Shown here one piece after another: positions 3,178 to 31,376 of a stretch of 47,933 bases of DNA. Source of the stretch: an uncultured Gammaproteobacteria bacterium (GTDB taxonomy: Bacteria > Patescibacteriota > Microgenomatia > Daviesbacterales > UBA10151); contig CAYICZ010000004.1 of NCBI GenBank assembly GCA_964362195.1, positions 1 through 47,933 of the forward strand, written 5' to 3'. The position numbers were made by a program, and so were the translations under genes. The notes under the pieces are model-generated. The model had not been told where the DNA came from, did not search any database, and worked only from the letters and a program-made list of their open reading frames with translations. Numbering within the stretch: the stretch's first letter is position 1; the number at the start of each line of letters is the position of its first letter.

Positions 3178-4221
3178 ATGGCAGAAAGAGTAGATACAAG
3201 ACCAAGGGTAGTTTTGGCCCTGTTGGCAGGCATGACTTTGGGAGTAACCTTTGGTTTAACCGGATGTTCTGAACCACTTCCCGCAGTCAGCACGGTATCT
3301 CCGTTAAATGAGGGGGATTTAAATCCTCCCACTGAAGCGGAACTTGGTAGAGAAGCCCTGGACCTTTTTACAAAGCCATCTCGATTCAGCAGACAGCTGG
3401 TTATTGAAAGGGCTAGATTTTGGCAGGAAGTATCTGGTGGGAATGGAGATTTTAAAATTAACAGGGGATATTTGGTGGCAGGGAATGGCAGATTGTTTAG
3501 TTTAGGTACACCTGACGGATTGACCATTGCCAATGTTTTGGTAGAAGCAAGTCTTATGAATAGATTTCCCGATGCGGCGCCCTGGTGGAAAGCACTGCCT
3601 GATACGGCTCTTGATGATATTTGGTGGATGTCAAAAAGAGTCACTATTTCACCTCTTTCCACAAATTTTATCAGTCCGCATGATTTAGTGGACTTAGCCC
3701 GAGGCATGCGAATTCTTGAATCAGCTGGCCAGGAAATACCTATTAGTGTGGCAATTAATCCCACTAAGCGTCTGCCAGCCAAAACACTTAATTTTACTGG
3801 GGAACCGTACAGAGATTTGGCTGTTTTTGTTTTGGAGAAAAATCCTAATCTGCTGGAAGATTATAAAAAAGCTGTGGATGAGGCTTTAGCTAATATCAGC
3901 CAACCATCTTTGCGGCTGGAGTTTCTTAGTGTCAGTAAATACGGGTACCTGACTTACCAAGACAGCCCAAAACAGGAACTCTTAACCACCCTTGCCTACT
4001 TTTTAAGGAATGCGGAAGATATTAAAAGGAGAATAGAAGTTGCCAAGAAAGCAGGGTTTACAGATGAGGCGGGAATTTTAGAAGTTAAACTTAAGATACT
4101 TAAGCAGTGGCTGGAAAGACCGGTTAAAGATACGGCTTCTTTAGGAATGTCTTTGCTGCAGACTTCAAATGAGGCTTTCCATCCGGGCTGCCCCGAATGC
4201 AGGCTACTGTTTCCTCAATAG
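3178..4221 (+). CDS. Hypothetical putative lipoprotein
   Basis: 347-aa ORF; hydrophobic N-terminus ending LTGC (lipobox-like); C-terminal CPEC; promoter TTGACT-18-TAGAAT. Confidence 0.6.
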   Translation: MAERVDTRPRVVLALLAGMTLGVTFGLTGCSEPLPAVSTVSPLNEGDLNPPTEAELGREALDLFTKPSRFSRQLVIERARFWQEVSGGNGDFKINRGYLVAGNGRLFSLGTPDGLTIANVLVEASLMNRFPDAAPWWKALPDTALDDIWWMSKRVTISPLSTNFISPHDLVDLARGMRILESAGQEIPISVAINPTKRLPAKTLNFTGEPYRDLAVFVLEKNPNLLEDYKKAVDEALANISQPSLRLEFLSVSKYGYLTYQDSPKQELLTTLAYFLRNAEDIKRRIEVAKKAGFTDEAGILEVKLKILKQWLERPVKDTASLGMSLLQTSNEAFHPGCPECRLLFPQ

Positions 4222-4239
4222 CATTCCGATACAGTTTCG

Positions 4240-4458
4240 TTAGAATCCTCTTTCCATTCTATCAAAGATGAGCTGTAGTCCCAACCTAAGTTTTGCAGAT
4301 AATGGTCTCGTCTGGGAGTGTTGTCTTATGTGTCTGCGACGGGGACGCTTTTCTGTGTATGGAGGATTTACATCACCAAGCTCGGGAGTTATTACCCCGC
4401 GTAACTGCCCAAGAAAAGCATGAAGTTCTACTCTTGAACCTCTGACTAACTCCCGCAT
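4240..4458 (-). CDS. Small basic hypothetical protein
   Basis: 72-aa ORF filling the gap without overlap; TGnTATATT upstream. Confidence 0.45.
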   Translation of the reverse strand: MRELVRGSRVELHAFLGQLRGVITPELGDVNPPYTEKRPRRRHIRQHSQTRPLSAKLRLGLQLIFDRMERGF

Positions 4459-4484
4459 ATGTTTAGAAGCCTAATATACCACTG

Positions 4485-5108
4485 TTAAGCGCCAAGTAAA
4501 ACAGCCGCAATTAATCTGGCTATACTAAAAACAAATCCCAGCATCCCGGTCAAAAGCAGGAATATTAAAATCATAAAGCCATATGGCTCTATTTTTTGAT
4601 AACTTTTTGCCAAATTATATGGTAGCTGTGACATTAAAACTTTTGATCCATCAAGAGGAGGAATAGGCAGGAGATTAAAAATTCCCAAAAGAAGATTGAT
4701 TGTTACTGTAAATTGTAAGATGGATCCTAAAATATCAGGGAAAGTTTGGGGAAGGGCATTTAAGAAATGATAGAGTACTGCAGCAGCAATGGCCAAACTA
4801 AAGTTTGCTAAAATTCCTGCAGCAGAAACAAAAAGCTCACCCTTTCTAATGTTTGAAAAATTAAGAGGGTTAACAGGCACGGGTTTGGCCCAGCCAAAAA
4901 GGATGGGGGAGCCTGTTAGGATTAGAAGGCCTGGTAAAAGAACGGTTCCAATTGGATCTATATGAGGTAGGGGATTTAAAGTCAGTCTGCCAGCATGTTC
5001 TGCTGTACGATCTCCAAATTTTCTGGCCACAAATCCATGCATAACTTCATGGACTATAACTGAAAAAAGCAAAATTACTATTGATAGGGCTAGAAACTCC
5101 GGGTTCAT
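4485..5108 (-). CDS. Site-2 protease, peptidase M50 family
   Basis: HEVMH zinc motif, GRLTLNPLPHID, NLLPIPPLDG. Confidence 0.93.
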   Translation of the reverse strand: MNPEFLALSIVILLFSVIVHEVMHGFVARKFGDRTAEHAGRLTLNPLPHIDPIGTVLLPGLLILTGSPILFGWAKPVPVNPLNFSNIRKGELFVSAAGILANFSLAIAAAVLYHFLNALPQTFPDILGSILQFTVTINLLLGIFNLLPIPPLDGSKVLMSQLPYNLAKSYQKIEPYGFMILIFLLLTGMLGFVFSIARLIAAVLLGA

Positions 5109-5126
5109 TATGTTATATTACCATAT

Positions 5127-5366
5127 ATGTTAGCGTGCACAAGATGTGGAAAGACAAAAGTTATATCAGCCTATTCCAGGCACAAGAAAGGTTCATCCGG
5201 AGCCGGGGGAGTTTGGGCGCTGCGGGCCCCCATTCATCAAAGAACTCAAAAACCAAACCTGCATGTTTACAAGGGTAAAAAATACTGCACCAAGTGTTTA
5301 AGGATAGTAAAAGTGAACTTAACGATAACGAAACCTATACTCCAAGAGGTTACTGCTGCTGCTTAA
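5127..5366 (+). CDS. rpmB: 50S ribosomal protein L28 (zinc-binding type)
   Basis: CTRCGK...SRH...R.QKPNL...CTKCLR. Confidence 0.85.
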   Translation: MLACTRCGKTKVISAYSRHKKGSSGAGGVWALRAPIHQRTQKPNLHVYKGKKYCTKCLRIVKVNLTITKPILQEVTAAA

Positions 5367-5420
5367 GTTATATCCTATAGGATTTGATATATCCAACGAG
5401 AAGTGGTATGATTTTAGCGT

Positions 5421-6179
5421 ATGGTGCAGTTAGAATTAGATATTAGATTTCCAACAGATCGTAGCGATGAAGAAACCGTTTTTTATAGGAGCAGGATTTT
5501 AAGAGAATTTAAACAAGGGCAAAGAAGCAATTCCAAAAATTTTCAGACTTTCTCTTTTGAAGAAGCTATCTTAAAATTTTCCGCAAAAACTAACCTTTAT
5601 TTTAAAGAATTAAGTGATAATAGTGGAGATGATATTGATCAGTGGGTTGCCAGAGCTTTAGGTAAGGCCTTACCTTATTTTGCAGGTAAAAAGGGAAATT
5701 TTAGAAGCTTAGGGCATTTCTGGAAAACTTATTATGAAGATATAATTTATCATTTAGCTGTAGATAGGCACCGTTTAATAGTAGGACGGCAACATGAAAC
5801 TATACTTCCTTTTCCATCCAAAGAGGTTAGAGAACAGAGGCGAATTGGTTTTCAGCCACCCTTATTAAGAGAAGCTAGGGTAAATTTGGCAGGTCATGAT
5901 CTAAGCAAACAATTCCTGGCTGATTTACGAAACCCCAGAGGGGTTTTATTTGGTAAAGAAATTATTGGTTTAAACCCTGATTATGTTGTTGGGTTAGATA
6001 AACATAGAAAGAGAGCTTTAATTTTAAAATCTTTAAACCCTAGACTCTCGAGTAAAGAAATTGCGAAAATTTTGGAGGATGAAGGGTTTGGGACATTTGC
6101 AGATTCTGCAGTGAGAGTCTGGTTTAAAAGAGCTAAAGATCATCAGAGTACCGGGCTACTTACTACACAAGCTGTTTAA
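5421..6179 (+). CDS. Orphan ECF sigma factor-like protein
   Basis: C-terminal LDKHRKRALIL...LSSKEIAKIL...SAVRVWFKRAK resembles ECF region 4; promoter TTGATA-17-TATGAT-8-ATG. Confidence 0.55.
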   Translation: MVQLELDIRFPTDRSDEETVFYRSRILREFKQGQRSNSKNFQTFSFEEAILKFSAKTNLYFKELSDNSGDDIDQWVARALGKALPYFAGKKGNFRSLGHFWKTYYEDIIYHLAVDRHRLIVGRQHETILPFPSKEVREQRRIGFQPPLLREARVNLAGHDLSKQFLADLRNPRGVLFGKEIIGLNPDYVVGLDKHRKRALILKSLNPRLSSKEIAKILEDEGFGTFADSAVRVWFKRAKDHQSTGLLTTQAV

Positions 6180-6204
6180 CGGAAAATCCGGGTAGCCGTT
6201 GAGG
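6177..6204 (-). repeat. Stranded second copy of the fmt 3' end (LNGYPDFPL)
   Basis: 6181-6200 is identical to 7276-7295 (GGAAAATCCGGGTAGCCGTT); flanking mismatches are synonymous in the fmt frame. Confidence 0.85.
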
Positions 6205-6213
6205 GAACCCCTT

Positions 6214-7257
6214 TTAGGCAGCTTCAGCTAAATTTTCCAAATCCGGGAGGATAGGTTCCGAGATACCACTAACTTTTCTCCAGAAATACTGTTCTACATC
6301 CCAAATATAAACTGTTTCCGGTTTAAGACCATAAGTTTCAATCAGCCCTCTTTGGGCTTTGCCTGCTTCATAAGGATAGACCGCCCCCATTTTGTTATCT
6401 GTCCAGGGAAACATCTGCAGTTCCGGTACCTTTACTCCTTTGCCAAAAACTCTGCACAGAGAAGCTAAAGCCTGGATAACTGACCAGGGTGGCATTGCTT
6501 TATCAGCCTGGTTGTAGATATTTATACCCAAGATGTCGCTATTTTCGATCACATGCAAAATTAGTTCAGGGGTATCAAACGGGATGTTTTGTAGGATCGG
6601 GCGGCGGTAAGGGTCCAGTGATCTGACCATTTGTACCTCCTGAAGATTGAATTCTGGCGAAACATAGCGGTAATTGGTTAGCGGCAATCTTTGGGAGAAA
6701 GCTTCATTTTCCACCTGGATGGAGGTGATCTCTCTGATCGGGAGGAAACGTTCGGAAACGTCTGTTAATAATTTAAAAACCAGATCTCTAAACTCCGGAT
6801 CAGTATCAATTTGACCGGGATGTTTCAAATAAGGAAATTTTTCCTCCAGATCTTTTGGTACATGCACCTCTGGCCACCAAATGGTTTTTACCCCCATCTG
6901 TAAGGCAATACGCTTACCTTTTTTAATAGCTTCATTAATACAGAAATCTATTGTAGAATAATCGGCTTTGCCGTTGTAACCGTAGGCCACATCAAAAGGT
7001 ACGGCAATTCTAACGTTTCCAAAGGGTAAAGCAAGTATGTCGTTAATAGTCTGACGAAAGTTTAATCCTAACCAATTAATTCTTTTAGGACTAAGATTTA
7101 CCCCCATTTGATCAGGTGATAATTTTAAGCTGGTTTGGGTCGTTTCTTGAGGTTGATCATTTAGTCCCAGGCCTACTTCGGCAGTCAATAAAAGAGCAGC
7201 CATGCCTTTTAAAAAATCACGTCTGGTAGTCTGACTTTCTTTCGGTTCGATAGTCAT
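6214..7257 (-). CDS. Putative clan GH-A glycoside hydrolase-like protein with twin-arginine-like N-terminus
   Basis: TRRDFLK followed by a hydrophobic helix; VRIAVPF, QVENE (acid/base-like), VPELQ (nucleophile-like). Confidence 0.6.
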   Translation of the reverse strand: MTIEPKESQTTRRDFLKGMAALLLTAEVGLGLNDQPQETTQTSLKLSPDQMGVNLSPKRINWLGLNFRQTINDILALPFGNVRIAVPFDVAYGYNGKADYSTIDFCINEAIKKGKRIALQMGVKTIWWPEVHVPKDLEEKFPYLKHPGQIDTDPEFRDLVFKLLTDVSERFLPIREITSIQVENEAFSQRLPLTNYRYVSPEFNLQEVQMVRSLDPYRRPILQNIPFDTPELILHVIENSDILGINIYNQADKAMPPWSVIQALASLCRVFGKGVKVPELQMFPWTDNKMGAVYPYEAGKAQRGLIETYGLKPETVYIWDVEQYFWRKVSGISEPILPDLENLAEAA

Positions 7258-8171
7258 TTATTTGTTGATTTTAGGGGAAAATCCGGGTAGCCGTTCAGGA
7301 AATCTTTTAAAGATATAGCTTTTTTGCCTTCCATTTGCAACATATTTCCTGGTAGGAATTTAACTATGCGGGCTTGCCCGCTGGAGCCCGAAGGGCGAAA
7401 GCGGGTCCAAACCCCCGGCCAGGGGTAATATGCCCGAATCATTCTGTTTAATTTTTGTGGATCAGGTTGGTTATCAATGGGGAAGTAGCCACTTTCTCTG
7501 GTTAATTTATCACAAAATGTAGCGATCGCATCATTTTGTTTTTTCAAAGTTATCTTTCCTGCAGCAAAATCCTCAATAATTTTGGGTAAAACCTCAGCCG
7601 CTTGCTGAAACATTTTTTTACTCAAAGTATCAAAATTATCTTCATTAAAGAGCTCTAAAGTATCTTGATAAATAATGGGTCCATGATCCACTTCCTCATC
7701 CATTTTTATGATAGTTATTCCGGTTTCGCTGTCTCCATTTAATATAGCTTGCTGAATAGGTGAAGGACCTCTGTATTTGGGTAAGAGTGATGGGTGAACA
7801 TTCAAGCTTCCGAATTTTGGAATGTTTAAGATAAATTTTGGAATAATTTTGCCGAAAGAAGCAACTACAAATAGATCAGGCTTGAAATTTGAGATTTGGG
7901 ATTGGAAATTTTCATCCAGCTTTCCGGAAGTAAATATTGGTCCTTTGAAATAATTAGCTACAGCAGAATCTGAAGCAGTAACCACTGCCACAACCTCAAA
8001 ATTATCTTCCAGCGCCTGCAAGATAGGAATAACAAAAAGATCACTTCCAAAAAAGATAACTTTAATTTCGTTTAGTTTGATCTTTCCTAAATATTTTTCA
8101 ACCTCTTTCATATAAACCGGGATGATTTCTAAAGTAGAAAGGGGGACTTGTGGATGCTGCAGCTTTATCAT
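7254..8171 (-). CDS. fmt: Methionyl-tRNA formyltransferase
   Basis: IFFGS, LNVHPSLLPKYRGPSPIQ, VDHGPI, IRAYYPWPG; adjacent to def. Confidence 0.95.
   Translation of the reverse strand: MIKLQHPQVPLSTLEIIPVYMKEVEKYLGKIKLNEIKVIFFGSDLFVIPILQALEDNFEVVAVVTASDSAVANYFKGPIFTSGKLDENFQSQISNFKPDLFVVASFGKIIPKFILNIPKFGSLNVHPSLLPKYRGPSPIQQAILNGDSETGITIIKMDEEVDHGPIIYQDTLELFNEDNFDTLSKKMFQQAAEVLPKIIEDFAAGKITLKKQNDAIATFCDKLTRESGYFPIDNQPDPQKLNRMIRAYYPWPGVWTRFRPSGSSGQARIVKFLPGNMLQMEGKKAISLKDFLNGYPDFPLKSTNK
7368..7405. repeat. Palindromic element in frame in fmt (RFRPSGSSGQAR)
   Basis: CCCGCT-GGA-GCCC-GAA-GGGC-GAA-AGCGGG stem/internal loop/stem; GC-rich island in an AT-rich gene. Confidence 0.8.
7882..7909. repeat. 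Period-7 tract in fmt (NFQSQISNF)
   Basis: TTGAAAT TTGAGAT TTGGGAT TGGAAAT. Confidence 0.75.
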
Positions 8172-8683
8172 ATGGTGATTTCCTCAAAATTATCCATGCC
8201 TGTTTTGTCTTTTCCGGTGAATTTATAAAATTTTCCTTTTTGCTCAAGTACCCTGTCTTGAAACAGGACACCATTTAAATGATCTATTTCATGCTGGAAA
8301 ATCCAGGCCAAAACCCCTTTTAAAGCTTTTGTAATCATCTTTCCGGTCTCATTCTGGTATGAAATTTTGATATTGGTGTATCTTTTAACCTCACCCCAAA
8401 CATTAGGGGCAGACAAACACCCTTCAAAATATTTTTTGGTTCTTTTGCCAGTTGAGAGTATTTTTGGATTAATCACAGAGACAAAATTTTTATCATGTTT
8501 AACCACAAAAAAGCTCTCATTCAGACCTACCTGAGTTGAGGCAAGTCCCACCCCCTCAGGATCATTAAAAGTTTTGGTAAGTTTTATCATTTCTTTTAAG
8601 GTTTTAAGCAAAGCAGAGTTAATCTTTTTAACCCGCTTTGTTTGTACTCTAAGCCTTGGATCAGGCGCTATAACTATTTGCAT
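8168..8683 (-). CDS. def: Peptide deformylase
   Basis: GVGLASTQVG, EGCLS, QHEIDHLNG; start set at MQIV, 7 nt after TGnTACAAT. Confidence 0.96.
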   Translation of the reverse strand: MQIVIAPDPRLRVQTKRVKKINSALLKTLKEMIKLTKTFNDPEGVGLASTQVGLNESFFVVKHDKNFVSVINPKILSTGKRTKKYFEGCLSAPNVWGEVKRYTNIKISYQNETGKMITKALKGVLAWIFQHEIDHLNGVLFQDRVLEQKGKFYKFTGKDKTGMDNFEEITI

Positions 8684-8719
8684 AAGTGGAATTGTAGCAT
8701 TTAGGATAAATTGAGGCAA

Positions 8720-11309: not shown

Positions 11310-11389
11310 TAGGGTACAGCGACTAGGGTATAGGGTTTAGTAAGAAAAATCAACTATACCCTAACCTCTAGACCCTAAACCCTACCCTA
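11310..11389. repeat. Inverted pair of TAGGGTW / WACCCTA heptamer tracts in a divergent intergenic region
   Basis: TAGGGTA cagcgac TAGGGTA TAGGGTT TAG ... TACCCTA ACCTCTA GACCCTA AACCCTA CCCTA. Confidence 0.85.
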
Positions 11390-14650: not shown

Positions 14651-15686
14651 TTCTTCCTGAACCTTTTTCTGCTAAAATTTGACCGTTTTCAAAAACTTTT
14701 TCTCCTCTTAAATAAACTGTTTTTACTTTACCCACTACTTTTTTGCCCTCAAAAGGGGACCACTTGCACTTTGTGTAGAAGGGAATAGGGTTTAGGGTAT
14801 AGGGTTTAGTATCATCAACTTCTATATAAGTATTTTCATCAGTTGGAATGTTAAAAATCCTTTTAGGGTTGTCAAATAAAAGCCTTTTAATATCATCTAT
14901 AGTAAGTTTGTCTTCGCTAACTGCTGTTAATAAAAGTGGAAGAGTTGTCTCAAGTCCGGGTACTCCAAATGGAGGATTTTCACTCTCCTTTTCTGCTTTA
15001 GTATGTGGCGCATGGTCAGATTCAATAAGGTCTATGGAATCTAGGTTACTCCATAGAAAATCCTGGTCAGCTTGGGTTTTTAAAAATGGCTTCATTCTGC
15101 CATATGGCCCAAGTTTTTGGCCATCTATGTCTGTTAGAAAAAGATGGTGGGGAGTAACTCCACAAGTTAAAGGTAGCCCCTCTTTTTTTGCAGTCATAAT
15201 TTGGGACAATTCTTCTTTGGATGAAACATGACAAATATGGGTTTTCTTGTTGGTGGACTTAATAATTTTTAAAGCCATAGGCAAAGTTTTCCCTTCACAA
15301 TGTAAAAGAATTGGCTGACTTTCTGGCCAAGCTTCATAAATGGCCCTCAATTTTTCTTCATCAATTAAAAAATTTCCGGTTGTAACATTTAAATAAAGTT
15401 TTATTCCAAAGACTTGACTTGCCACTTTAGGAAATTCTTCTAAATTATCACCCAAAGATCCAAAGTAAAAACCTATATCGCAAACAGTATTTTTTCTGGC
15501 CAGTTCCATTTTTTGTTGGAGTAGCTCTTGGGTGATTATGGGCACTTTATTGTTGGGCATATCCAAAACAGTAGCAAATCCTCCGGCTAGCGCAGCAGAG
15601 GTGCCGGTTAAAAAATCCTCCTTTTCCTCCTGTCCCGGAGTCCGAAGGTGTACATGGATATCAATTAGACCGGGTAAAGTAATCAT
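14631..15686 (-). CDS. pyrC: Dihydroorotase
   Basis: PGLIDIHVHLR, DMPN, HICHVS, VTPHHL, SDHAPH. Confidence 0.93.
   Translation of the reverse strand: MITLPGLIDIHVHLRTPGQEEKEDFLTGTSAALAGGFATVLDMPNNKVPIITQELLQQKMELARKNTVCDIGFYFGSLGDNLEEFPKVASQVFGIKLYLNVTTGNFLIDEEKLRAIYEAWPESQPILLHCEGKTLPMALKIIKSTNKKTHICHVSSKEELSQIMTAKKEGLPLTCGVTPHHLFLTDIDGQKLGPYGRMKPFLKTQADQDFLWSNLDSIDLIESDHAPHTKAEKESENPPFGVPGLETTLPLLLTAVSEDKLTIDDIKRLLFDNPKRIFNIPTDENTYIEVDDTKPYTLNPIPFYTKCKWSPFEGKKVVGKVKTVYLRGEKVFENGQILAEKGSGRIISPVV
14779..14811. repeat. Period-7 tract in pyrC (TKPYTLNPIP)
   Basis: AAGGGAA TAGGGTT TAGGGTA TAGGGTT TAGTA; 14793-14811 is identical to 11324-11342. Confidence 0.85.
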
Positions 15687-16327: not shown

Positions 16328-17067
16328 TTTAGCGCCTCCTGGATTTGCCGGCTTAAATCAAGGGCAGCTTGTCTTGGATTATCTGAAAAGATTATTCCTC
16401 TGGAGGATGAAACAATAATTCCTGCACCCTTACTGTTAATTGCGCTTTTTAATGATTTAAGTTCTCCACCTTGTGCTCCAATTCCCGGGATTAAAATCGG
16501 CATGTCTCCGATAATTTCCCTTATTTTTTTCAGCTCCTCAGGATAAGTTGCCCCTACCACCACTCCTGCATTTTCACCCCAATCTTTTACATGTTCAGCA
16601 ACTACTTGATACAAAGGTTTACCATCTACTATTAAATCCTGGAATTCTCCTGCTCCCGGATTTGAAGTTCTAACCAAAACGAATATCCCCTTATCAACTC
16701 TATTCAAAAATGGCTGCAAGGCCGCTTTTCCTAAATACGGGTGGACTGTTAAGCCGTCTGCTCCCAGATTATCAAATACTGCTTTAGCATATTCTTCATT
16801 GGTATTACCAATATCAGCTCTTTTAGCATCCAAAATAATTGGCATTTCAGGGTCTTTTTGATGAATATAATCAATAGTTTGTTTAAGGGATTCTAATCCT
16901 TCTACTCCGGCTGCTTCATAAAAAGCAGAGTTAGGTTTATAGGCACAGACTAAATCAAAGGTTTGGTCAATAATAGATTTGTTTAATTTAAAATCAGGGG
17001 AGTCAAGTCCAACGCAAGCAAATTTACCTTCATTCCATTTATTTTTAAGTTTAGTAAGATAAGTCAT
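16324..17067 (-). CDS. pyrF: Orotidine-5'-phosphate decarboxylase (subfamily 2)
   Basis: CVGLD, YKPNSAFY, LDAKRADIGNT, RTSNPG, PGIGAQGG, SSRG. Confidence 0.95.
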   Translation of the reverse strand: MTYLTKLKNKWNEGKFACVGLDSPDFKLNKSIIDQTFDLVCAYKPNSAFYEAAGVEGLESLKQTIDYIHQKDPEMPIILDAKRADIGNTNEEYAKAVFDNLGADGLTVHPYLGKAALQPFLNRVDKGIFVLVRTSNPGAGEFQDLIVDGKPLYQVVAEHVKDWGENAGVVVGATYPEELKKIREIIGDMPILIPGIGAQGGELKSLKSAINSKGAGIIVSSSRGIIFSDNPRQAALDLSRQIQEALK

Positions 17068-17129
17068 TGATTAGCTTGCGATTAATATACCGCATTTGCT
17101 AAAAAAATGCTAATATTGTGTCGAACTAA

Positions 17130-17918
17130 ATGGACAAAATAATCCCTGATTTTAAAATCTTTTTAACCGTAATTTTTCTTAGTTTAGGAATATTTATTTT
17201 AGATTCATTTCATTTTTTAACTATTCCAAAAAGATTAGCATTTTATATTACAAATCCTATTTCTTTTGGGCTTTATTCCAGCAGCAAAAGTTTGGGCAGA
17301 CAATTTTATTTTATTTTTCAAGCCAGGCAATCTGCTATGGAAGTTAAAGCATTAAAAGAACAGATAGGACAGTTGCTTTCTGAAAACGCCAGAATTAGAA
17401 AAAATTTAGCAGAAACGCAAAGTTTACTTTCTCAGGAAAAACACTTAGATCCACAAACGTATAATCTTTTACCGGCCCGACCGATAGGATTAAGCCGGTA
17501 TTTAAAGATTGATAAGGGATCGCAGGATGGAATAAAGGTAGGAGAAGTAGTGGTATTTAATGAAAATTTAATAGGTAGAATTGTTTTTGTATCTGATGAT
17601 GCTTCTAATGTTGCTCTATTAATAGATCCTGATTCCAGGGTAGCTGCATTTTCTCAAGGAATAGATGGCAGGGCAAAGGGAATACTGCTGGGACAATTTG
17701 GTACTGATATTCTTTTTGACAAGATTTTGCATGAAGAAAAAATTAATATTGGAGATTTAGTTTATTCAGAAGGAACAGAAGAGTATTTACCAAGAGGTTT
17801 AATTTTAGGGAAAGTTACTCAAGTTATGGAGCAGAAAAATGAATTATTTAAAAGAGCAAAAGTCCAAAACATTTTTGATCCAAGAGATTTGGATTTAGTA
17901 TTTGTGATTAAAGAATAA
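17130..17918 (+). CDS. mreC: Rod shape-determining protein MreC
   Basis: TM, coiled coil, IDKGSQDGIKVG, PRGLILG. Confidence 0.9.
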   Translation: MDKIIPDFKIFLTVIFLSLGIFILDSFHFLTIPKRLAFYITNPISFGLYSSSKSLGRQFYFIFQARQSAMEVKALKEQIGQLLSENARIRKNLAETQSLLSQEKHLDPQTYNLLPARPIGLSRYLKIDKGSQDGIKVGEVVVFNENLIGRIVFVSDDASNVALLIDPDSRVAAFSQGIDGRAKGILLGQFGTDILFDKILHEEKINIGDLVYSEGTEEYLPRGLILGKVTQVMEQKNELFKRAKVQNIFDPRDLDLVFVIKE

Positions 17919-20141: not shown

Positions 20142-20767
20142 TGGATACTAAACAAGTAACTATTCTTGATAAAGACTACCCCAAACTCTTGAAGGAAATT
20201 TATGATCCGCCAATAGTTTTATATTATAAAGGAAGTTTAAATTGTTTAAGTAAAAAATGCATTGCTGTTGTGGGAACAAGGAAAATGACAGGTTATGGCA
20301 GGACTGTTTGCGAACAATTTGTTAAAGAGTTGGTAAGATCTAATTTAACTATTATTTCAGGTTTAGCCAGAGGAATAGATGCGCTAGCTCACAAAACTGC
20401 TGTTGAAGCTAATGGTCAAACAGTGGCGGTTTTAGGAAGTGGCTTAAATAATATTTATCCTCCTGAAAATAAACAGCTGGCCATGGATATAATAAACGGA
20501 CATGGAGCTGTTATCTCGGAGTATCCACCTGATTATTTACCCCGGCCAGGCAATTTTCCCGTCCGGAACAGAATTATTTCAGGATTATCTTTAGGAGTTT
20601 TGGTTGTTGAAGCAGCAGAGAATAGCGGATCAAACATCACTGCCAGATTAGCTCTTGAGCAGGGAAGGGATGTTTTTGCAATAGCGCCAAATGATTTAAT
20701 AAAAGATGGAGCCTTTGCAGTTTTTGAACCGGAAGAAATATTGGATGAGTTAGGTCTTAAGTGGTAA
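20141..20767 (+). CDS. dprA: DNA-processing protein DprA (core domain only)
   Basis: YPKLLKEIYDPP, AVVGTR, ISGLARGID, FPVRNRIISGLS. Confidence 0.93.
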   Translation: MDTKQVTILDKDYPKLLKEIYDPPIVLYYKGSLNCLSKKCIAVVGTRKMTGYGRTVCEQFVKELVRSNLTIISGLARGIDALAHKTAVEANGQTVAVLGSGLNNIYPPENKQLAMDIINGHGAVISEYPPDYLPRPGNFPVRNRIISGLSLGVLVVEAAENSGSNITARLALEQGRDVFAIAPNDLIKDGAFAVFEPEEILDELGLKW

Positions 20768-20778
20768 ACTAAAAAAGT

Positions 20779-21132
20779 ATGCCCAAAGGATTTTTGGTTG
20801 CTTTAATTTTAGCAGTAGTATTATTTAGCGGATATTTTACTTTGGCTGTTAATAATGCATTTGTTAAAACAGGCCCCACAAAACAAGAAATTGAAACAGC
20901 TGTTAATCAAGCCAGACATATATATTCTCAAAGAGCAAAATTAAATGAGGATTTTTCCAATGGGCCATGTCTCACAGAAAGTTTAATGCCTGGTTGGGTT
21001 GTTGATATTGTGCATAGTCCCAGATTGCCAATTGATGATTTGCCGGCGAATCAGTGCCAATCATTCCGGGAGGGAAGAGCTAATCATTTTGTAGAACTTG
21101 ATTTAAATGGTAACTTAGTAAGAGTTTATTAA
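20779..21132 (+). CDS. Hypothetical membrane-anchored protein with Cys pair
   Basis: N-terminal TM; NGPCL...NQC...HFVELD. Confidence 0.75.
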   Translation: MPKGFLVALILAVVLFSGYFTLAVNNAFVKTGPTKQEIETAVNQARHIYSQRAKLNEDFSNGPCLTESLMPGWVVDIVHSPRLPIDDLPANQCQSFREGRANHFVELDLNGNLVRVY

Positions 21133-21136
21133 ACAT

Positions 21137-23641
21137 ATGAAATATTTATCAATTCCAATCCACTTAGTTGAATTTTGGTACCCTGAAGGCATTGCATTCT
21201 TTTTAAGAACCTGGAAAAATTTAACGCTTTTTTTAGAAGAGGATTTAGCTGTTAGTTTAATGTGGAGACTTCTTTTTACTCCACTTTTTCATGATTCATC
21301 CTATGTAGGTAGATTTTTAAGTTTTTTGTTTAGGTTGTCCCGGATCTTAATGGGGCTTTTTGCATTTGCTCTTTCGACTATTGGATTAAGCTTTATTGCT
21401 ATATATTGGTTTGTCTTACCGGTTTTGGCTTACTTGAATATGCCCCAATTTTTATCACAGGGCCTATTTTTAGCAGGGTTAGGCTTATTTCTAGTCCATA
21501 TCACTACCCATCCTCACAAAAAAGTCTGGCAGGTGGGGACAGGAAATCTTTGGTCTGCCTCAACTTTAAAAAAAGAGGATTTAACGTTTCCTAAACTACT
21601 CGCCAGTTTGGAGGTTTCAGATTTGTTGGCTAACCTGGAATTACAACTTGATCATTTACCTGATTTAGAAATTAAAGATATAGAAGAGGTAGCAAAAAAA
21701 GCATATGAATTGGCAAAAGGCTCTGAAAGTGAATATATAACTCCCCGCCATTTTTTTGTAAGCCTTCTGGAGCAAATTCCGGATATTGATAATCAATTAC
21801 TAAAGTTAGATCTAAGATTGCAGGATTTTGAACACGCGCTAAATTATTTGGAAAAGAAGAAAAATACCTGGAGAAGGATTTTTATTTGGGACGATGAATT
21901 TAGTATCCGCCATCTGCAAGGTGTAAACAGGGGTTGGATTGGGATACCAACTCCAAATTTGGATTTAGCGAGTACGGATTTAACCAAAAAAATGGCTACT
22001 GAAGCTTTTCCAACTTTGATTCGGGAGCATTCTGTCATTTCGGAGGTGATTAATATTTTATCGCAAAATAGCGGACGTAATGTAATATTAGTTGGTTTTC
22101 CCGGAGCTGGTAAGTCAGCTTTAATTAAACATCTGGCAAAGCAGATAGTTTTAGGAAATGCTCCTGAGGCGCTGGCCACCAAGAGGCTTGTCCTTTTGGA
22201 TTTAACAAAACTGTTGTCCGGCATTAAAACTCAGGGGGAGCTGGCAGAGCGGATTAAGATTATCTTTGAAGAAGTTTCTTCATCCGGGAATATAATTATT
22301 GTGATTGAGGAGATTCATGAGCTGGGTGTTGGAGAGGTTGGATCCAGCTTAAACCTTTATTCTTTAATGGAAAATTATCTGGAGGAGGATGCTTTTCAAT
22401 TTATTGGCACAACTGAGCCGGATAATTACTCAAGAATTTTGGAAAAGAATGCTTCATTTGCCCGGGTTTTTCGCAAAATAGAGCTGGCTCCGGCATCGGT
22501 TAATGACACTCTAAATATTTTGATGTATAGAAGTATCGAAGCTGAAAGGAAAGATAAAATTAAGGTTACTTATGTGGCTATCAAGACAGCTGTGGAACTT
22601 TCTCAAAAGTTTGTGCGGGATCGGGTATTACCTGATAGTGCAATTTCTGTTTTAAAGGAAAGCTTGACGCAGTCAGTTAACGGCTGGGTAACTAAAGATG
22701 TAGTGAGGCGGGTAATCTCATCCAGGGTTAAAGTTCCCATGATGGAGGTAGGAAATGCTGATAAAGCTAAACTGCTTAATTTAGAGCAGGAGTTGCATGC
22801 CAGATTAATTGGTCAAGAACAGGCAGTAAAAGGTGTTTCAGATGCACTGCGCAGATCTGCAACAGGTATGTCTGATGATGGTAGGCCGATTGGATCATTT
22901 TTATTTGTCGGCCCGACAGGAGTTGGTAAAACAGAGCTGGCTAAAACTTTAGCTGAAGTATATTTTAAGACCCAAGGGGCATTTTTGCGATTTGATATGT
23001 CTGAGTATCAGAATCAGGAATCAATAGTTAGGTTAATCGGCGGATCCGGAGAAGGTGGATTATTAACAGAAGCTGTCAGAAACAGGCCTTATGCCCTGTT
23101 ACTTTTAGATGAGTTTGAAAAGGCTAATGATAAAATTCTAACATTGTTCCTACAAGTATTAGATGATGGGAGATTAACCGATGGAGCTGGCAGAACTATT
23201 GATTTTGAAAATACCATTATTATAGCCACCTCCAATGCCGCCTCGTTAACAATTGCCCAGGGTTTGCAAGCTGGTAAAAATTTGGAGGAAATAGATAAAG
23301 AGGTTAATGATGAATTGCTTAAAGTATTCAGGCCCGAGCTTATTAACAGATTTGATGAGGTGGTTTTGTTTAAACCGCTGTCGCAGGAGGATTTACAAAA
23401 AATAGTTACAAATAAGTTAAAAATTATGCAAAATAACTTAAAATCTAAAGGGTATTTGGTGGAGTTTTCACCGGAGTTGGTTGCAGAACTGGCAAAGCGA
23501 GGCTTTGACCCGGTGCTTGGAGCAAGGCCTCTTCGGAGACTAATGCAAGATACGCTGGAGGCAAATTTTTCTAAACTTATTTTGGAGGGAAAATTAACTA
23601 AAGGTTCTTCATTTAAAGTCGGAATAGACTTATTATCCTGA
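21137..23641 (+). CDS. Clp/Hsp100-type double AAA+ ATPase with N-terminal membrane segments
   Basis: GFPGAGKS / IEEIH; GPTGVGKT / LLDEFEK; RFDMSEY, GRLTD, GARPLRR; hydrophobic stretch near aa 60-122. Confidence 0.9.
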   Translation: MKYLSIPIHLVEFWYPEGIAFFLRTWKNLTLFLEEDLAVSLMWRLLFTPLFHDSSYVGRFLSFLFRLSRILMGLFAFALSTIGLSFIAIYWFVLPVLAYLNMPQFLSQGLFLAGLGLFLVHITTHPHKKVWQVGTGNLWSASTLKKEDLTFPKLLASLEVSDLLANLELQLDHLPDLEIKDIEEVAKKAYELAKGSESEYITPRHFFVSLLEQIPDIDNQLLKLDLRLQDFEHALNYLEKKKNTWRRIFIWDDEFSIRHLQGVNRGWIGIPTPNLDLASTDLTKKMATEAFPTLIREHSVISEVINILSQNSGRNVILVGFPGAGKSALIKHLAKQIVLGNAPEALATKRLVLLDLTKLLSGIKTQGELAERIKIIFEEVSSSGNIIIVIEEIHELGVGEVGSSLNLYSLMENYLEEDAFQFIGTTEPDNYSRILEKNASFARVFRKIELAPASVNDTLNILMYRSIEAERKDKIKVTYVAIKTAVELSQKFVRDRVLPDSAISVLKESLTQSVNGWVTKDVVRRVISSRVKVPMMEVGNADKAKLLNLEQELHARLIGQEQAVKGVSDALRRSATGMSDDGRPIGSFLFVGPTGVGKTELAKTLAEVYFKTQGAFLRFDMSEYQNQESIVRLIGGSGEGGLLTEAVRNRPYALLLLDEFEKANDKILTLFLQVLDDGRLTDGAGRTIDFENTIIIATSNAASLTIAQGLQAGKNLEEIDKEVNDELLKVFRPELINRFDEVVLFKPLSQEDLQKIVTNKLKIMQNNLKSKGYLVEFSPELVAELAKRGFDPVLGARPLRRLMQDTLEANFSKLILEGKLTKGSSFKVGIDLLS

Positions 23642-24299: not shown

Positions 24300-26282
24300 A
24301 TGCAAAATTTAGTAATAGTTGAATCACCAACAAAGGCCCGCACTTTGCAAAAGTTTTTAGGGGATAAATATCAAATTGAAGCCTCAATGGGCCATGTTCG
24401 GGATTTACCAAAGTCAGAACTGGGGGTGGATATTGAGAATAATTTTGAACCGGAATATATTATCCCCAGAGATAAGAAAAAGAGGGTTAATGAATTAAAA
24501 AAGCTGGCATTAGGTGCAGATAAGCTATATTTAGCTACAGATCCTGACCGTGAAGGGGAAGCCATAGCCTGGCACATTGCGCATATATTAGAGAAAAGAA
24601 AAGAGGATATGCAAAGGGTAGAGTTTCATGAAATCACAGAAAGTGCCATAAAAGATGCATTTACTCATCCCCGTGAGCTTGATTTAAAACTGGTTGATGC
24701 CCAGCAAGCCAGAAGAATTCTAGATAGGCTTGTAGGTTATAAGCTTTCACCTTTGCTTTGGGCAAAGATTAAAAAAGGATTATCCGCAGGAAGAGTGCAA
24801 TCAGTTGCGCTAAGGCTGATAGTTGAGCGGGAAAGAGAAGTTTTAGCTTTCAAGCCAAATGAATATTGGAGTATAGAAGCAGAGTTGGAAGCAGAAAAAG
24901 ATAAATTCATAGCAAACTTAATAGAACAAAATGGAAAAAAGCTGGAGATTAAAAACAAGCAAGAGGCTGATGGACATCTTAAAAATCTTGAGAAAGCAAA
25001 ATATGAAGTTTCAAAAGTTATACAAAAAGAAGTCAGACGCTATCCTTATCCTCCTTTTACCACTTCAACTTTGCAGCAAACTGCGGCAAATAGGTTGGGA
25101 ATGTCTGCTAAAAAAACTATGATGCTTGCCCAAAATTTATATGAACATGGATTTATTACCTACATGAGAACAGATTCTGTAAATTTATCCACTCAGGCAA
25201 TCTCTCAGGTGAGAGGTTATATTGAAGACTCAATCGGCAGGGCATATTTGCCGAAAACTGCCAGAGTTTTTAAATCCAAATCTAAAAATGCCCAGGAAGC
25301 ACATGAGGCAATCAGGGTGACAGATGTAAGCATAAAGGGTGAGGAATTAAAGGGAAAGGGGAATTTCAACAAGGATCACATCAGATTATATGATTTGATT
25401 TGGAAAAGGTTTGTGGCTTGCCAAATGAATGAGGCAGTAATGGATCAAACTGCCATTGATATTTCAGCAGAGCAGTATTTATTTAGAGCCACAGGTTCTG
25501 TTATTAAATTTGACGGTTGGCTAAAGCTATATGGAAAAGATGTTGAAGAGGAAGATACGGAGAAAAATCAGGCTTTGCCAAAATTGTCTGAGAATCAAAT
25601 ATTAAAATTACTCCGGCTTCTTCCCGGCCAACATTTTACAGAGCCTCCTCCTAAGTTTACTGAAGCCTCTTTAATTAAAAAACTGGAAGAGTTGGGGATA
25701 GGCAGGCCTTCCACTTATGCTCCTATTTTATCAACCATTCAGGAGCGATTTTATGTGGAAAAAATAGAGCGGAAGTTTATTCCCACAAAATTAGGGATAA
25801 CTGTGATAGACTTCCTGCTTAAATATTTTTCGGATATTTTGGATTATTCGTTTACAGCTAAAATGGAGGATGAACTGGATGAAATTGCCAGAGGAGAGAG
25901 AAAGTGGAAACCTACTATAAAAGAGTTTTACGAACCTTTTGAGAAAAAGCTTGAGGAAACAGAGGAAAAAGCTGAAAAAGTGAAAATGGAACTTGAGTAT
26001 GTAGATAAAAAGTGCCCGCAGTGCGGTAAGCAATTAATTGTCAGGGTTGGTAAGTTTGGTAAATTCCTGGCCTGCTCCGGATTTCCTGAGTGTAAATATA
26101 CGCAAGGTCTGGAGGAAAAAATTGATGCTAAATGTCCGCTGGATGGCGGAGATATTATGGTAAGAAGAACCAAGAGAGGTAAAACTTTTTATGGCTGTAA
26201 AAACTGGCCGACTTGCAAATTTGCTTCCTGGACAAAACCTAAAGGAGCCAATCCAGATCCAACTGTTGACACAAAAGGCTAA
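24300..26282 (+). CDS. topA: DNA topoisomerase I
   Basis: LVIVESP, ATDPDREGE, SAGRVQS, ITYMRTDS, C-terminal zinc ribbons. Confidence 0.97.
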   Translation: MQNLVIVESPTKARTLQKFLGDKYQIEASMGHVRDLPKSELGVDIENNFEPEYIIPRDKKKRVNELKKLALGADKLYLATDPDREGEAIAWHIAHILEKRKEDMQRVEFHEITESAIKDAFTHPRELDLKLVDAQQARRILDRLVGYKLSPLLWAKIKKGLSAGRVQSVALRLIVEREREVLAFKPNEYWSIEAELEAEKDKFIANLIEQNGKKLEIKNKQEADGHLKNLEKAKYEVSKVIQKEVRRYPYPPFTTSTLQQTAANRLGMSAKKTMMLAQNLYEHGFITYMRTDSVNLSTQAISQVRGYIEDSIGRAYLPKTARVFKSKSKNAQEAHEAIRVTDVSIKGEELKGKGNFNKDHIRLYDLIWKRFVACQMNEAVMDQTAIDISAEQYLFRATGSVIKFDGWLKLYGKDVEEEDTEKNQALPKLSENQILKLLRLLPGQHFTEPPPKFTEASLIKKLEELGIGRPSTYAPILSTIQERFYVEKIERKFIPTKLGITVIDFLLKYFSDILDYSFTAKMEDELDEIARGERKWKPTIKEFYEPFEKKLEETEEKAEKVKMELEYVDKKCPQCGKQLIVRVGKFGKFLACSGFPECKYTQGLEEKIDAKCPLDGGDIMVRRTKRGKTFYGCKNWPTCKFASWTKPKGANPDPTVDTKG

Positions 26283-30426: not shown

Positions 30427-31376
30427 AAAAGCACGAAGAATACCAATATCTGGATCTATTAAAAGACATCATGAAAAATGGGGTAAACAAGCCTGTTTTT
30501 AATAATCCGGGGGTCCACATCAAATCTGTTTTTGGCAGGCAACTAAGGTTTGATTTATCAAAAGGTTTTCCTTTGCTTACAACCAAAAAAGTATTTTTGC
30601 GCGGAATTATTCATGAACTGCTTTGGTTTATAAAAGGGGATTCAAATATTAAATATCTGGTTGATTGTGACGTGCATATTTGGGATGAATGGGCGTATAA
30701 AGCTTACAAAGTGCAAAGTGCAAAGGGAAAAGTGAAAAGTTTAACACAGGAAGAATTTATACAAAAAATAAAACAGCTACCAACCAGTGATCCTTTTGTT
30801 AAAAATTGGGGGGATTTGGGAAATGTTTATGGAGTGCAGTGGAGAAAATGGAAAACATCTGATGGAAGGATAATTGATCAGCTGGCTTGGGCCATTAATG
30901 AGTTAAAAACCACCCCTTTTAGAAAATCAATTGTTGTTTCTGCCTGGAATCCGGAATTTATTTATGAGATGGCCTCACCTGGGAAATCCATGGCCCTGCC
31001 TCCCTGCCATACTCTTTTTCAATTTAATGTAAAGGCTGGCAGGTTATCACTGCAACTTTATCAGCGCTCTGCAGATACATTTTTAGGTGTTCCTTTCAAC
31101 ATAGCATCTTATGCTTTATTTACGCAGATGGTCGCTCAAGTGGTGGGATTTAAACCCGGAGAATTTGTCCATACATTTGGTGACGTACATATATATAGTA
31201 ATCATATGAGTCAGGTTAAAGAGCAATTAAAGAGGGTTCCAAGAAAATTTCCAAAAATGAAAATTAATCCTAAGATAAAAAATATTGATGATTTTAAACT
31301 GGAAGACTTTACCCTTGAGAACTACAATCCATATCCTCCTATTAAGGGAGAGGTGACAGTAGTAGGAGGATTTTGA
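30423..31376 (+). CDS. thyA: Thymidylate synthase
   Basis: [31 protein letters not shown]. Confidence 0.97.
30707..30741. repeat. Period-7 tract in thyA ([11 protein letters not shown])
   Basis: CAAAGTG CAAAGTG CAAAGGG AAAAGTG AAAAGTT. Confidence 0.85.

Follow-up and report, generated by a model that had tools for sequence, protein, structure and literature searches.

Integrative elements that insert at the 3′ end of a gene supply a replacement for that end, and integrase-less derivatives of such elements are known, for example the CIMEs at fda in Streptococcus thermophilus. In Neisseria, minimal mobile elements are different whole-gene cassettes found between the same two conserved genes; they carry no mobility genes, and transformation and homologous recombination have been invoked for them. 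At rhs loci, according to the part of Jackson et al. (2009, PMC2935791) on which we draw, the model is one of homologous recombination with a circular intermediate that carries a core fragment, a tip and the intervening genes: the resident tip gives way to an incoming one, whose attached core fragment varies in length, and cdiA and mafB loci are similar. Here we describe a comparable architecture at the 3′ end of fmt, the methionyl-tRNA formyltransferase gene, in a stretch of 47,933 nucleotides (nt; hereafter the window, contig CAYICZ010000004.1 of assembly GCA_964362195.1) from an uncultured member of the Patescibacteriota, whose genome (G000) is a metagenome assembly of 814,899 bases in 38 contigs.

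We propose that a cassette of ~1.1 kb, carrying a single glycoside hydrolase (GH)-like gene, entered the last fmt codons of this genome through one reciprocal crossover and left the resident fmt end stranded downstream. To this statement as a whole, mechanism included, we give a probability of roughly 0.6. That the architecture, taken alone, reflects a cassette insertion which displaced the resident fmt end is very probable; that a homology-driven single crossover brought it about is the reading that we favour on balance. This would provide a concrete, testable mechanism for the gain or swap of single genes in small-genome bacteria without obvious mobile elements, and any genome can be screened for its footprint, a stranded gene end.

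Of the systems above, C-terminal displacement at rhs loci is the closest described mechanism, in footprint as well as in inferred mechanism. As in the rhs loci of the cited part of PMC2935791, downstream of an intact gene, on the same strand, lies a dissociated fragment that consists of a conserved piece of variable length and an alternative tail; displaced ends may pile up in tandem, as in one relative of our bacterium (G016); and attached and displaced ends are both conserved alleles, not decayed copies (here in G016 and G004). The differences, measured against that same part of the source, are that the targets here are housekeeping enzymes (fmt and, at a second locus, a GT4 glycosyltransferase) and not a polymorphic toxin with a toxin tip and immunity cargo; that just 9 to ~30 codons are displaced, with no function of their own, the payload being a whole gene or gene pair behind the tail; and that the host is a groundwater bacterium with a genome of 0.8 Mb. 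Descriptions of C-terminal displacement have so far concerned polymorphic toxin genes; the present case would extend it to housekeeping genes.

With the CIMEs and other elements integrated at gene 3′ ends, our locus has in common the direct repeats at both ends, a gene kept intact by an element-borne end, the repeated use of one site and possible tandem accretion; it differs in that no integrase was found in cis among the 104 ORFs scanned, that repeat length and crossover point are not fixed, and that the cargo is one or two genes. Cassette swapping between two conserved genes without mobility genes is a likeness to the Neisseria elements (compare the pertinent part of PMC3787668), but their two flanking crossovers leave no duplicated gene end, whereas here the stranded end would record an insertion by single crossover. 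A limited literature search returned no account of gene-end displacement at fmt or in Candidate Phyla Radiation bacteria, and the portion of a groundwater Patescibacteria gene-exchange paper (PMC12455944) that we consulted has no description of it at fmt or in these bacteria.

The locus is laid out as follows, in window coordinates, with ORF standing for open reading frame and aa for amino acids:

4485-5108, minus strand: M50 peptidase gene (from the ORF list and Pfam)
5127-5366, plus strand: rpmB-like ORF, the conserved far flank of the variable interval, converging on fmt; its tblastn match adjoins M50 in 82 of 92 family loci
5421-6179, plus strand: ORF252, function unassigned, outside the repeats; overlaps the stranded fmt tail by its final 23 nt
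6157-6207, minus strand: stranded fmt end, reading LNGYPDFPLNSLCSK and then stop; repeat copy at 6175-6207, exact core at 6181-6200
6214-7257, minus strand: the cargo, a GH-like ORF of 347 aa, between the repeat copies
7254-7275, minus strand: present fmt tail PLKSTNK and stop, beyond the repeat
7270-7302, minus strand: functional repeat copy inside fmt (FLNGYPDFPLK), exact core at 7276-7295
7254-8171, minus strand: fmt, intact, 305 aa (Pfam Formyl_trans_N 4.8e-37, Formyl_trans_C 2.1e-05)
8168-8719, minus strand: def, peptide deformylase, upstream of fmt in the same operon (Pfam Pep_deformylase 3.8e-42)

On the minus strand fmt ends ...FLNGYPDFPLKSTNK and then stop, with its stop codon overlapping the ATG of the cargo as ATGA, and a second, out-of-context LNGYPDFPLNSLCSK with a stop sits just past the stop of the 347-aa ORF. 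A nhmmer profile made from 88 functional fmt ends finds this stranded end with an E-value of 6.5e-05. The functional copy reads TTC CTG AAC GGC TAC CCG GAT TTT CCC CTA AAA and the stranded copy CTC AAC GGC TAC CCG GAT TTT CCG TTA AAC, so that LNGYPDFPL is the translation of both. They have in common the exact 20-nt core AACGGCTACCCGGATTTTCC, which at up to 3 mismatches has two matches in the window, against none in 100 shuffles, and the same two and no more in the whole genome. The direct-repeat pair extends to 33 nt at 88% identity (29/33) with a spacing of 1095 nt, and the four differences between the copies are A/G, C/G, G/C and G/A. The duplicated fmt ends which the initial annotation had seen on either side of the GH-like gene are thus borne out, as is its remark that the differences are synonymous, there being three within the 27 nt that code for LNGYPDFPL. 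Its step from there, that both copies must have evolved under constraint, is too weak and is not logically required: an all-synonymous pattern arises by chance with a probability of 0.013, or of 0.066 when differences are restricted to the 7 non-core positions, and it is equally expected if only the constrained functional copy has changed.

Evidence from relatives carries the argument further. We located fmt in 91 of the 96 genomes of a family survey and fetched 92 fmt loci; in a check of 41 relatives, all 41 had the gene. The order of genes is conserved: an O-antigen-ligase-like gene, orf87, def and fmt, then a variable interval of 0 to 3.4 kb, then the convergent rpmB and M50. (The name rpmB, for ribosomal protein L28, is one that we take from reading the sequence by eye; the ORF at 5127-5366 has no match in a Pfam scan.) Among the 82 loci with rpmB in the fetched stretch, 28 are empty, that is with fmt and rpmB abutting or overlapping at a distance of at most 120 nt, while the remaining 54 hold 0.2 to 3.4 kb of varied genes; relatives with an empty site in the rpmB-fmt interval, for which a search had been advised at the outset, therefore exist. 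Empty and filled sites differ exactly by the cargo and one repeat. The GH gene and ORF252 were found at the fmt-rpmB site in no relative. Also in agreement with the initial annotation, which had seen no integrase at the site, no integrase, resolvase or transposase was found among 104 interval ORFs scanned with Pfam, out of 118 of at least 70 aa; the other 14 comprise 13 toxin-antitoxin ORFs that cluster or align with the tested pair of G043, and one that is a 45-aa-shorter start variant of a scanned G004 ORF.

Stranded fmt ends recur in these intervals. With the last 50 residues of fmt as the query, second matches appear 0.6-1.7 kb downstream of fmt in eight relatives. A degenerate form of the core, AAYGGNTAYCCNNAYTTYCC, matches in 58 of 96 genomes (two matches for the backwards control), and single matches, where compared with fmt positions, lay at the fmt end; eight genomes, that of the window included, have extra copies, all on the fmt strand, seven of them downstream of fmt on the same contig and that of G023 on the rpmB contig. 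The nhmmer profile gives extra fmt ends with E<0.01 at ten loci (G000, G004, G016, G043, G045, G056, G085, G086, G099 and G111; 11 with G023) and borderline ones, with E of 0.012-0.17, in G008, G072 and G050 and for a second copy in G016. All of these lie on the fmt strand between fmt and rpmB, and every minus-strand match has E>=3.5. The repeats span 33 nt in the window, ~35-50 nt around toxin-antitoxin cassettes, 63 nt in G016 and at least 99 nt in G004. The interval can be regarded as a natural experiment: it offers empty sites, six or more kinds of cargo, a tandem pair of displaced ends, and reciprocal chimeras in which the crossover is recorded. It also carries a warning for annotation, since a short orphan ORF that lies behind a core gene may be a displaced gene end.

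A frequent cargo between the copies is a MazE/AbrB-type antitoxin gene with a PIN toxin gene (G043, G056, G086, G099, G111 and G050). Such a pair also stands behind fmt without a clear stranded copy in G110, G007, G006 and G049, as does a PIN gene alone in G083, and G045 has just a PIN 3′ remnant ahead of its stranded copy, with ORFs of 259 and 227 aa as cargos. Elsewhere the cargo is a 211-aa ORF (G016), a 140-aa ORF (G004), an HTH_3 gene with a 91-aa ORF (G085) or the GH-like gene of the window. Two side observations belong here. In G016 (contig C38, locus L073) stranded fmt ends at 3457-3518 and 3588-3610 lie in tandem, ~90 nt apart, behind one cargo, which looks like the trace of two successive displacements; together with the functional end, G016 has three core copies in all. 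The cassettes of G110 and G111, two members of one genus, look like separate acquisitions: identity is 76% for the host genes, 47% for the antitoxins and 59% for the PIN toxins, and G110 has neither the stranded copy nor the extra 120-aa ORF that is present in G111.

That the stranded copy is the old, resident end is seen in several of these relatives. The 400 nt after the stranded core of G111 are 84.5% identical to the 400 nt after the functional core of G015, and the stranded flank of G099 matches the functional flank of G095 at 78.9% over 152 nt, while the functional-copy flanks of the same pairs match at merely 22 and 25 of 70 positions. From these flank matches it follows that G015 and G095 are empty sites and that the stranded copy is the old fmt end. 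In G099, moreover, the functional repeat differs from G095 at 2 positions and is native-like, while the stranded one, with 7 differences, is foreign-like; this places the crossover of G099 3′ of the core.

In G016 and G004 the longer repeats allow the alleles themselves to be traced. A tree of the fmt body and def places G016 as sister (support 0.999) to a clade with functional ends PTDLKSFLNGYP. Its stranded copy carries the sister-clade allele PTDLKSF, whereas its functional end, AVPLKNF, resembles the other major clade; the nearest alleles of the stranded copy are those of G073 (54/63 nt) and G072 (53/63), ahead of its own functional copy (47/63). The 63-nt stranded copies differ from their functional partners at 16 positions in G016 and 24 in G004, with the conserved residues of the family kept, and since 0 of 20000 neutral-decay simulations reached the observed profile score in either genome, these stranded copies were shaped by coding constraint and evolved as coding fmt ends. 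In both genomes the functional copy is native at its 5′ side and foreign at its 3′ side, the stranded copy is foreign at its 5′ side and native at its 3′ side, and the switch falls at the EGKK codons GAAGGNAAAAA that are common to both copies. Such reciprocal chimeras would be expected of a single crossover with a circle that carries a partial foreign fmt end, and not of a target-site duplication or a decayed paralogue.

The tails on the functional copies point the same way. In six hosts with a toxin-antitoxin pair directly after fmt (G043, G056, G086, G099, G110 and G007) fmt ends in a common tail, K(S/G)IT(L/I/F)DKK (KKSITLDK in G099), while their stranded copies keep ordinary host-type tails (PLKEL, PIKSF, PLKNI, PLKLI). 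The last 8 fmt codons of the six form a palindrome, AGTATTAC..TTGACA..GTAATACT, presumably the promoter/operator of the toxin-antitoxin pair, a regulatory site that would double as a protein tail. As the palindrome around the TTGACA box encodes the tail, it would be the promoter region of the cassette that supplies the tail of fmt. By analogy with these six hosts, the present tail of the window, PLKSTNK, is probably cassette-borne as well. The overlap of its stranded tail with ORF252 fits that tail being the old fmt end, the empty-like site of G011 having a similar convergent overlap, and the overlap may explain why the tail has been preserved. Contigs of a second study hold a version of the cargo that is 95% identical from exactly position 6175, the repeat edge, next to fmt at ~83-90%, and their base at position 7296 is that of the stranded copy. 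These contigs suggest a cassette that related lineages have in common as a discrete unit, with the proviso that at the likeness threshold of 85% a faster-evolving flank would give the same picture.

The same architecture occurs once more in this genome, at an unrelated sequence, as emerged from the scan for duplicated gene termini that the initial annotation had advised and that covered all 818 ORF ends. On contig C7, at 3921-5732 (locus L176, 422-2233), a conserved GT4 glycosyltransferase gene now ends KERFKKEILHLTNISNLI; behind it lie a pair of Gp49/HigB-like and HTH_3 genes, then a stranded KERFKKEILELVDRNLK, then a small ORF with PIN pair. The stranded KERFKKEILELVDRNLK is the tail type of GT4 orthologues in 11 relatives, and the new tail contains a TTGACT...TATAAT promoter. 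To judge from these sequences, the GT4 locus is probably a second case of gene-end displacement.

For the window we envisage the following course. The incoming DNA would have been circular, or flanked by repeats, and its cargo would have been preceded by a short stretch (~33 nt here) from the 3′ end of an fmt gene. A single crossover would have kept fmt intact, with the tail past the repeat (KSTNK and stop) now borne by the cassette, and the cargo, whose start overlaps the fmt stop, would be read from the def-fmt operon. The resident end (LNGYPDFPLNSLCSK and stop) would have been shunted 1.1 kb downstream, still overlapping the end of the convergent ORF252. Recombination would be driven by homology: once DNA had been taken up, RecA would act on the best-conserved sequence in the vicinity, without a site-specific recombinase; RecA and ComEC are both encoded in the genome. 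Recombination between these two repeats could also excise the cassette precisely, which would restore the old fmt end. The circular form would read from the GH 3′ end through one repeat into the tail CCCCTAAAATC, and the empty form from the fmt body through one repeat into GTTAAACAGC.

The suggestion in the initial annotation that the incoming DNA brought its own fmt terminus and displaced the resident one is supported mainly by the relatives, through their empty sites, the ten stranded ends, the flanks and the chimeras. Its further suggestion, of a small circle integrating by short homology, is supported as probable, the chimeras of G016 and G004 being what one crossover with a circle would leave; we infer the circle itself, and likewise the enzymes, the donor and the direction in which the event ran in the genome of the window. 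We favour homology as the driving force because the length of the repeat varies from 33 to at least 99 nt; because the crossover point differs, being at EGKK in G016 and G004 and 3′ of the core in G099; because functional fmt ends vary freely at synonymous sites, so that the only constraint on the site is that of the protein; and because the same architecture sits at the unrelated GT4 target.

Several points weigh against this reading. Integration through 20-33 nt of homology is known to be inefficient in model bacteria, and elsewhere in the genome there are genes for three tyrosine recombinases and one serine recombinase (three Phage_integrase and one Resolvase family genes). A donor with the GH gene beside fmt was sought and not found: of the loci of GH homologues that we fetched (five from genome contigs and one metagenome locus at 36% identity), the five were scanned and have no fmt end or core motif near the gene, and two cluster members of 99% identity are strain variants with the same fmt tail. 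A degenerate form of the pattern expected of a circle or tandem junction, a PIN 3′ end followed by the fmt-end core and a toxin-antitoxin-type tail, occurs in 0 stretches of a genome-contig collection. Logan contigs show no joint between 6181-6200 and 7276-7295, although contigs cannot reveal rare forms, and no empty allele of this strain was found. In the last 27 nt of fmt the nearest-allele counts are 24-26 for either copy, the repeat of the window being too short to say which is resident, and the composition of the cargo is unusual only mildly, which is not decisive. Finally, toxin-antitoxin cassettes are about as diverged between hosts as host genes are (44-73% identity against 40-76%), so that many of these events are old and could partly have been inherited vertically.

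Of the alternatives to a homology-driven crossover, site-specific recombination in trans survives best, and we regard it as unlikely but worth keeping in mind. The fmt end would then be an attB site and the cassettes integrase-less passengers (CIME/IMEX-like) moved by a recombinase encoded elsewhere in the genome, on a phage or on a conjugative element. Direct repeats at a gene 3′ end together with a replacement tail have the classical look of attL and attR, one site has been used recurrently, the two tandem stranded copies of G016 look like accretion, and the Phage_integrase and Resolvase genes just mentioned could be sources of the enzyme. Set against this, the 104 interval ORFs include no recombinase in or beside the interval at any locus examined, the left boundary of the repeat varies between cassettes along with its length, inspection by eye revealed no conserved inverted-repeat core, and the freedom of synonymous sites in functional fmt ends leaves no sign of extra constraint at the DNA level; the differing crossover points and the unrelated GT4 target tell against it too.

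Considerably less probable is duplication in situ, in which ~33 nt of the host were copied on insertion to give a long target-site duplication, the copies then diverged and the cargo was the only import. This would give the same final layout, and the 29/33 identity with synonymous-only changes in the window fits divergence of the constrained copy alone; it is at odds with G016 and G004, where the two copies are fmt alleles of different clades, both under coding constraint, and with G099, where the stranded repeat is foreign-like while the tail and flank are native. To our knowledge, target duplications that vary from 33 to 99 nt match no transposition chemistry.

Two further outcomes, either of which the initial annotation had named as fatal to its idea, were looked for and neither was found. 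Decay of a larger tandem fmt duplication, which would have left the stranded copy as a remnant beside an unrelated GH gene, has in its favour the mere presence of a second fmt-end fragment and is very improbable, given that translation of the region between the copies shows no other fmt-derived sequence, that the cargo is predicted to be a GH-A barrel, that the stranded copies of relatives are foreign/native chimeras and not decayed paralogues, and that empty and filled sites differ so exactly. An assembly artefact or a chance repeat, which a 38-contig metagenome assembly might raise, is the least probable of all, in view of the shuffles, of the 95%-identical cargo beside an fmt end in the contigs of another study, of the same architecture in 10 other genomes, and of contigs from two runs (X1 and X2) of one study that span both junctions without a mismatch; the latter were assembled separately but possibly come from the source sample, so that they argue against an artefact without being independent. 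A diversity-generating retroelement was also considered and rejected, as the differences between the copies are not adenine-specific and there is no reverse transcriptase gene in 3.5-10 kb of the window.

Returning to the homology-driven crossover, a broader form of it can be put forward only tentatively, and we think it somewhat doubtful: that in these ultra-small groundwater bacteria the short, strongly conserved 3′ ends of core genes serve in general as portable homology arms. A cassette with a copy of such an end would be excised as a circle, enter a neighbouring cell by natural competence and be integrated at the same gene by RecA alone, a reversible gain that needs no dedicated mobility gene. 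If true, this would be a general, recombinase-free route of gene gain in a lineage poor in mobile elements, mostly for toxin-antitoxin pairs and also for single metabolic genes, and one by which the promoter of a cassette is written into the new tail of a host protein.

The cargo itself is predicted to be a (beta/alpha)8 barrel of the clan GH-A type. The 347-aa protein matches no Pfam GH family at E<=0.01, its sole match being a sub-threshold TAT_signal (0.0081), and a profile of 5 sequences gave 0 matches to PDB sequences. A search of 5.8 billion protein clusters gave four homologues at 38-46% identity and ~50 more distant ones that carry GH42, GH5 or GH10 models (PF02449, PF00150, PF00331), and in 34 aligned sequences VENE and E279 are invariant. 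Its AlphaFold2 model (pLDDT 87.9, pTM 0.85) has as its top Foldseek matches in the PDB the barrels of GH42, GH35, GH5_18 and PslG (GH39), with a probability of 1.00 and E-values of ~1e-9 to 1e-10. In clan GH-A the acid/base glutamate follows an asparagine on strand 4 and the nucleophile glutamate is on strand 7; in the model, N184-E185 and E279, candidates for these positions, are placed where predicted strands 177-182 and 274-281 end. With clan GH-A hydrolases the protein has in common the predicted barrel and, putatively, the Asn-Glu motif (VENE) and the second glutamate (E279); it differs from them in matching no curated family model. The label GH-like seems right because of the invariance of VENE and E279 and because of the model, with its matches to the GH42, GH35, GH5_18 and PslG barrels.

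There are mild hints that this gene is of foreign origin. The N-terminus has a signal-like TRRDFLK motif and a hydrophobic helix, and a textbook twin-arginine motif of this kind would be out of place without a Tat system: no family match to TatA or TatC was found in the genome, which is 100% complete by marker genes. The G+C content of the cargo, 41.8% against 36.6 +/- 3.5% for the 818 ORFs, is at the 93rd percentile, which hints mildly in the same direction.

Next to the cassette, ORF252 has no Pfam family, and an Atlas search gave merely sub-bar leads of a helix-turn-helix or sigma-like kind. It has no tblastn match in the loci of relatives and is unlike the ORFs at the same position there at 1e-4; the genes at this position in G043, G111 and G086 carry Sigma70_r4.

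Further repeats were seen in the window and on other contigs of this genome. In the window, a 19-nt exact direct repeat, TAGGGTATAGGGTTTAGTA, occurs at 11324-11342 and 14793-14811 (spacing 3469 nt), just upstream of the O-antigen-ligase-like gene. In the region 2196-5569 of contig C22 (locus L174), an AbiEii toxin gene has its final 55 nt duplicated 2.6 kb downstream (93% identity), with two AAA_14/DUF4143 ATPase genes bracketed by the copies; this may be another displaced gene end. At ~45362-46671 of contig C5 (locus L175) a 318-aa ORF has a second copy of its 3′ end (34 nt, 97%) 320 nt downstream, beside a bAvd-like gene (PF22296, 4e-18); this looks like a candidate pair of variable and template repeats of a diversity-generating retroelement. 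A hairpin-like exact repeat of 30 nt at 30800 and 40695 of contig C2, 9.9 kb apart, is near two tyrosine recombinase genes (17035-17535 and 25260-25790), and an integrated element may be bounded by it. Contig C16 has, at 20613-22494, three exact repeats of 20-32 nt with a common spacing of 1683 nt; one of them includes a tRNA-like GGATTCGAAC stretch, and they may stem from the duplication of a tRNA region or from an element that inserted at a tRNA.

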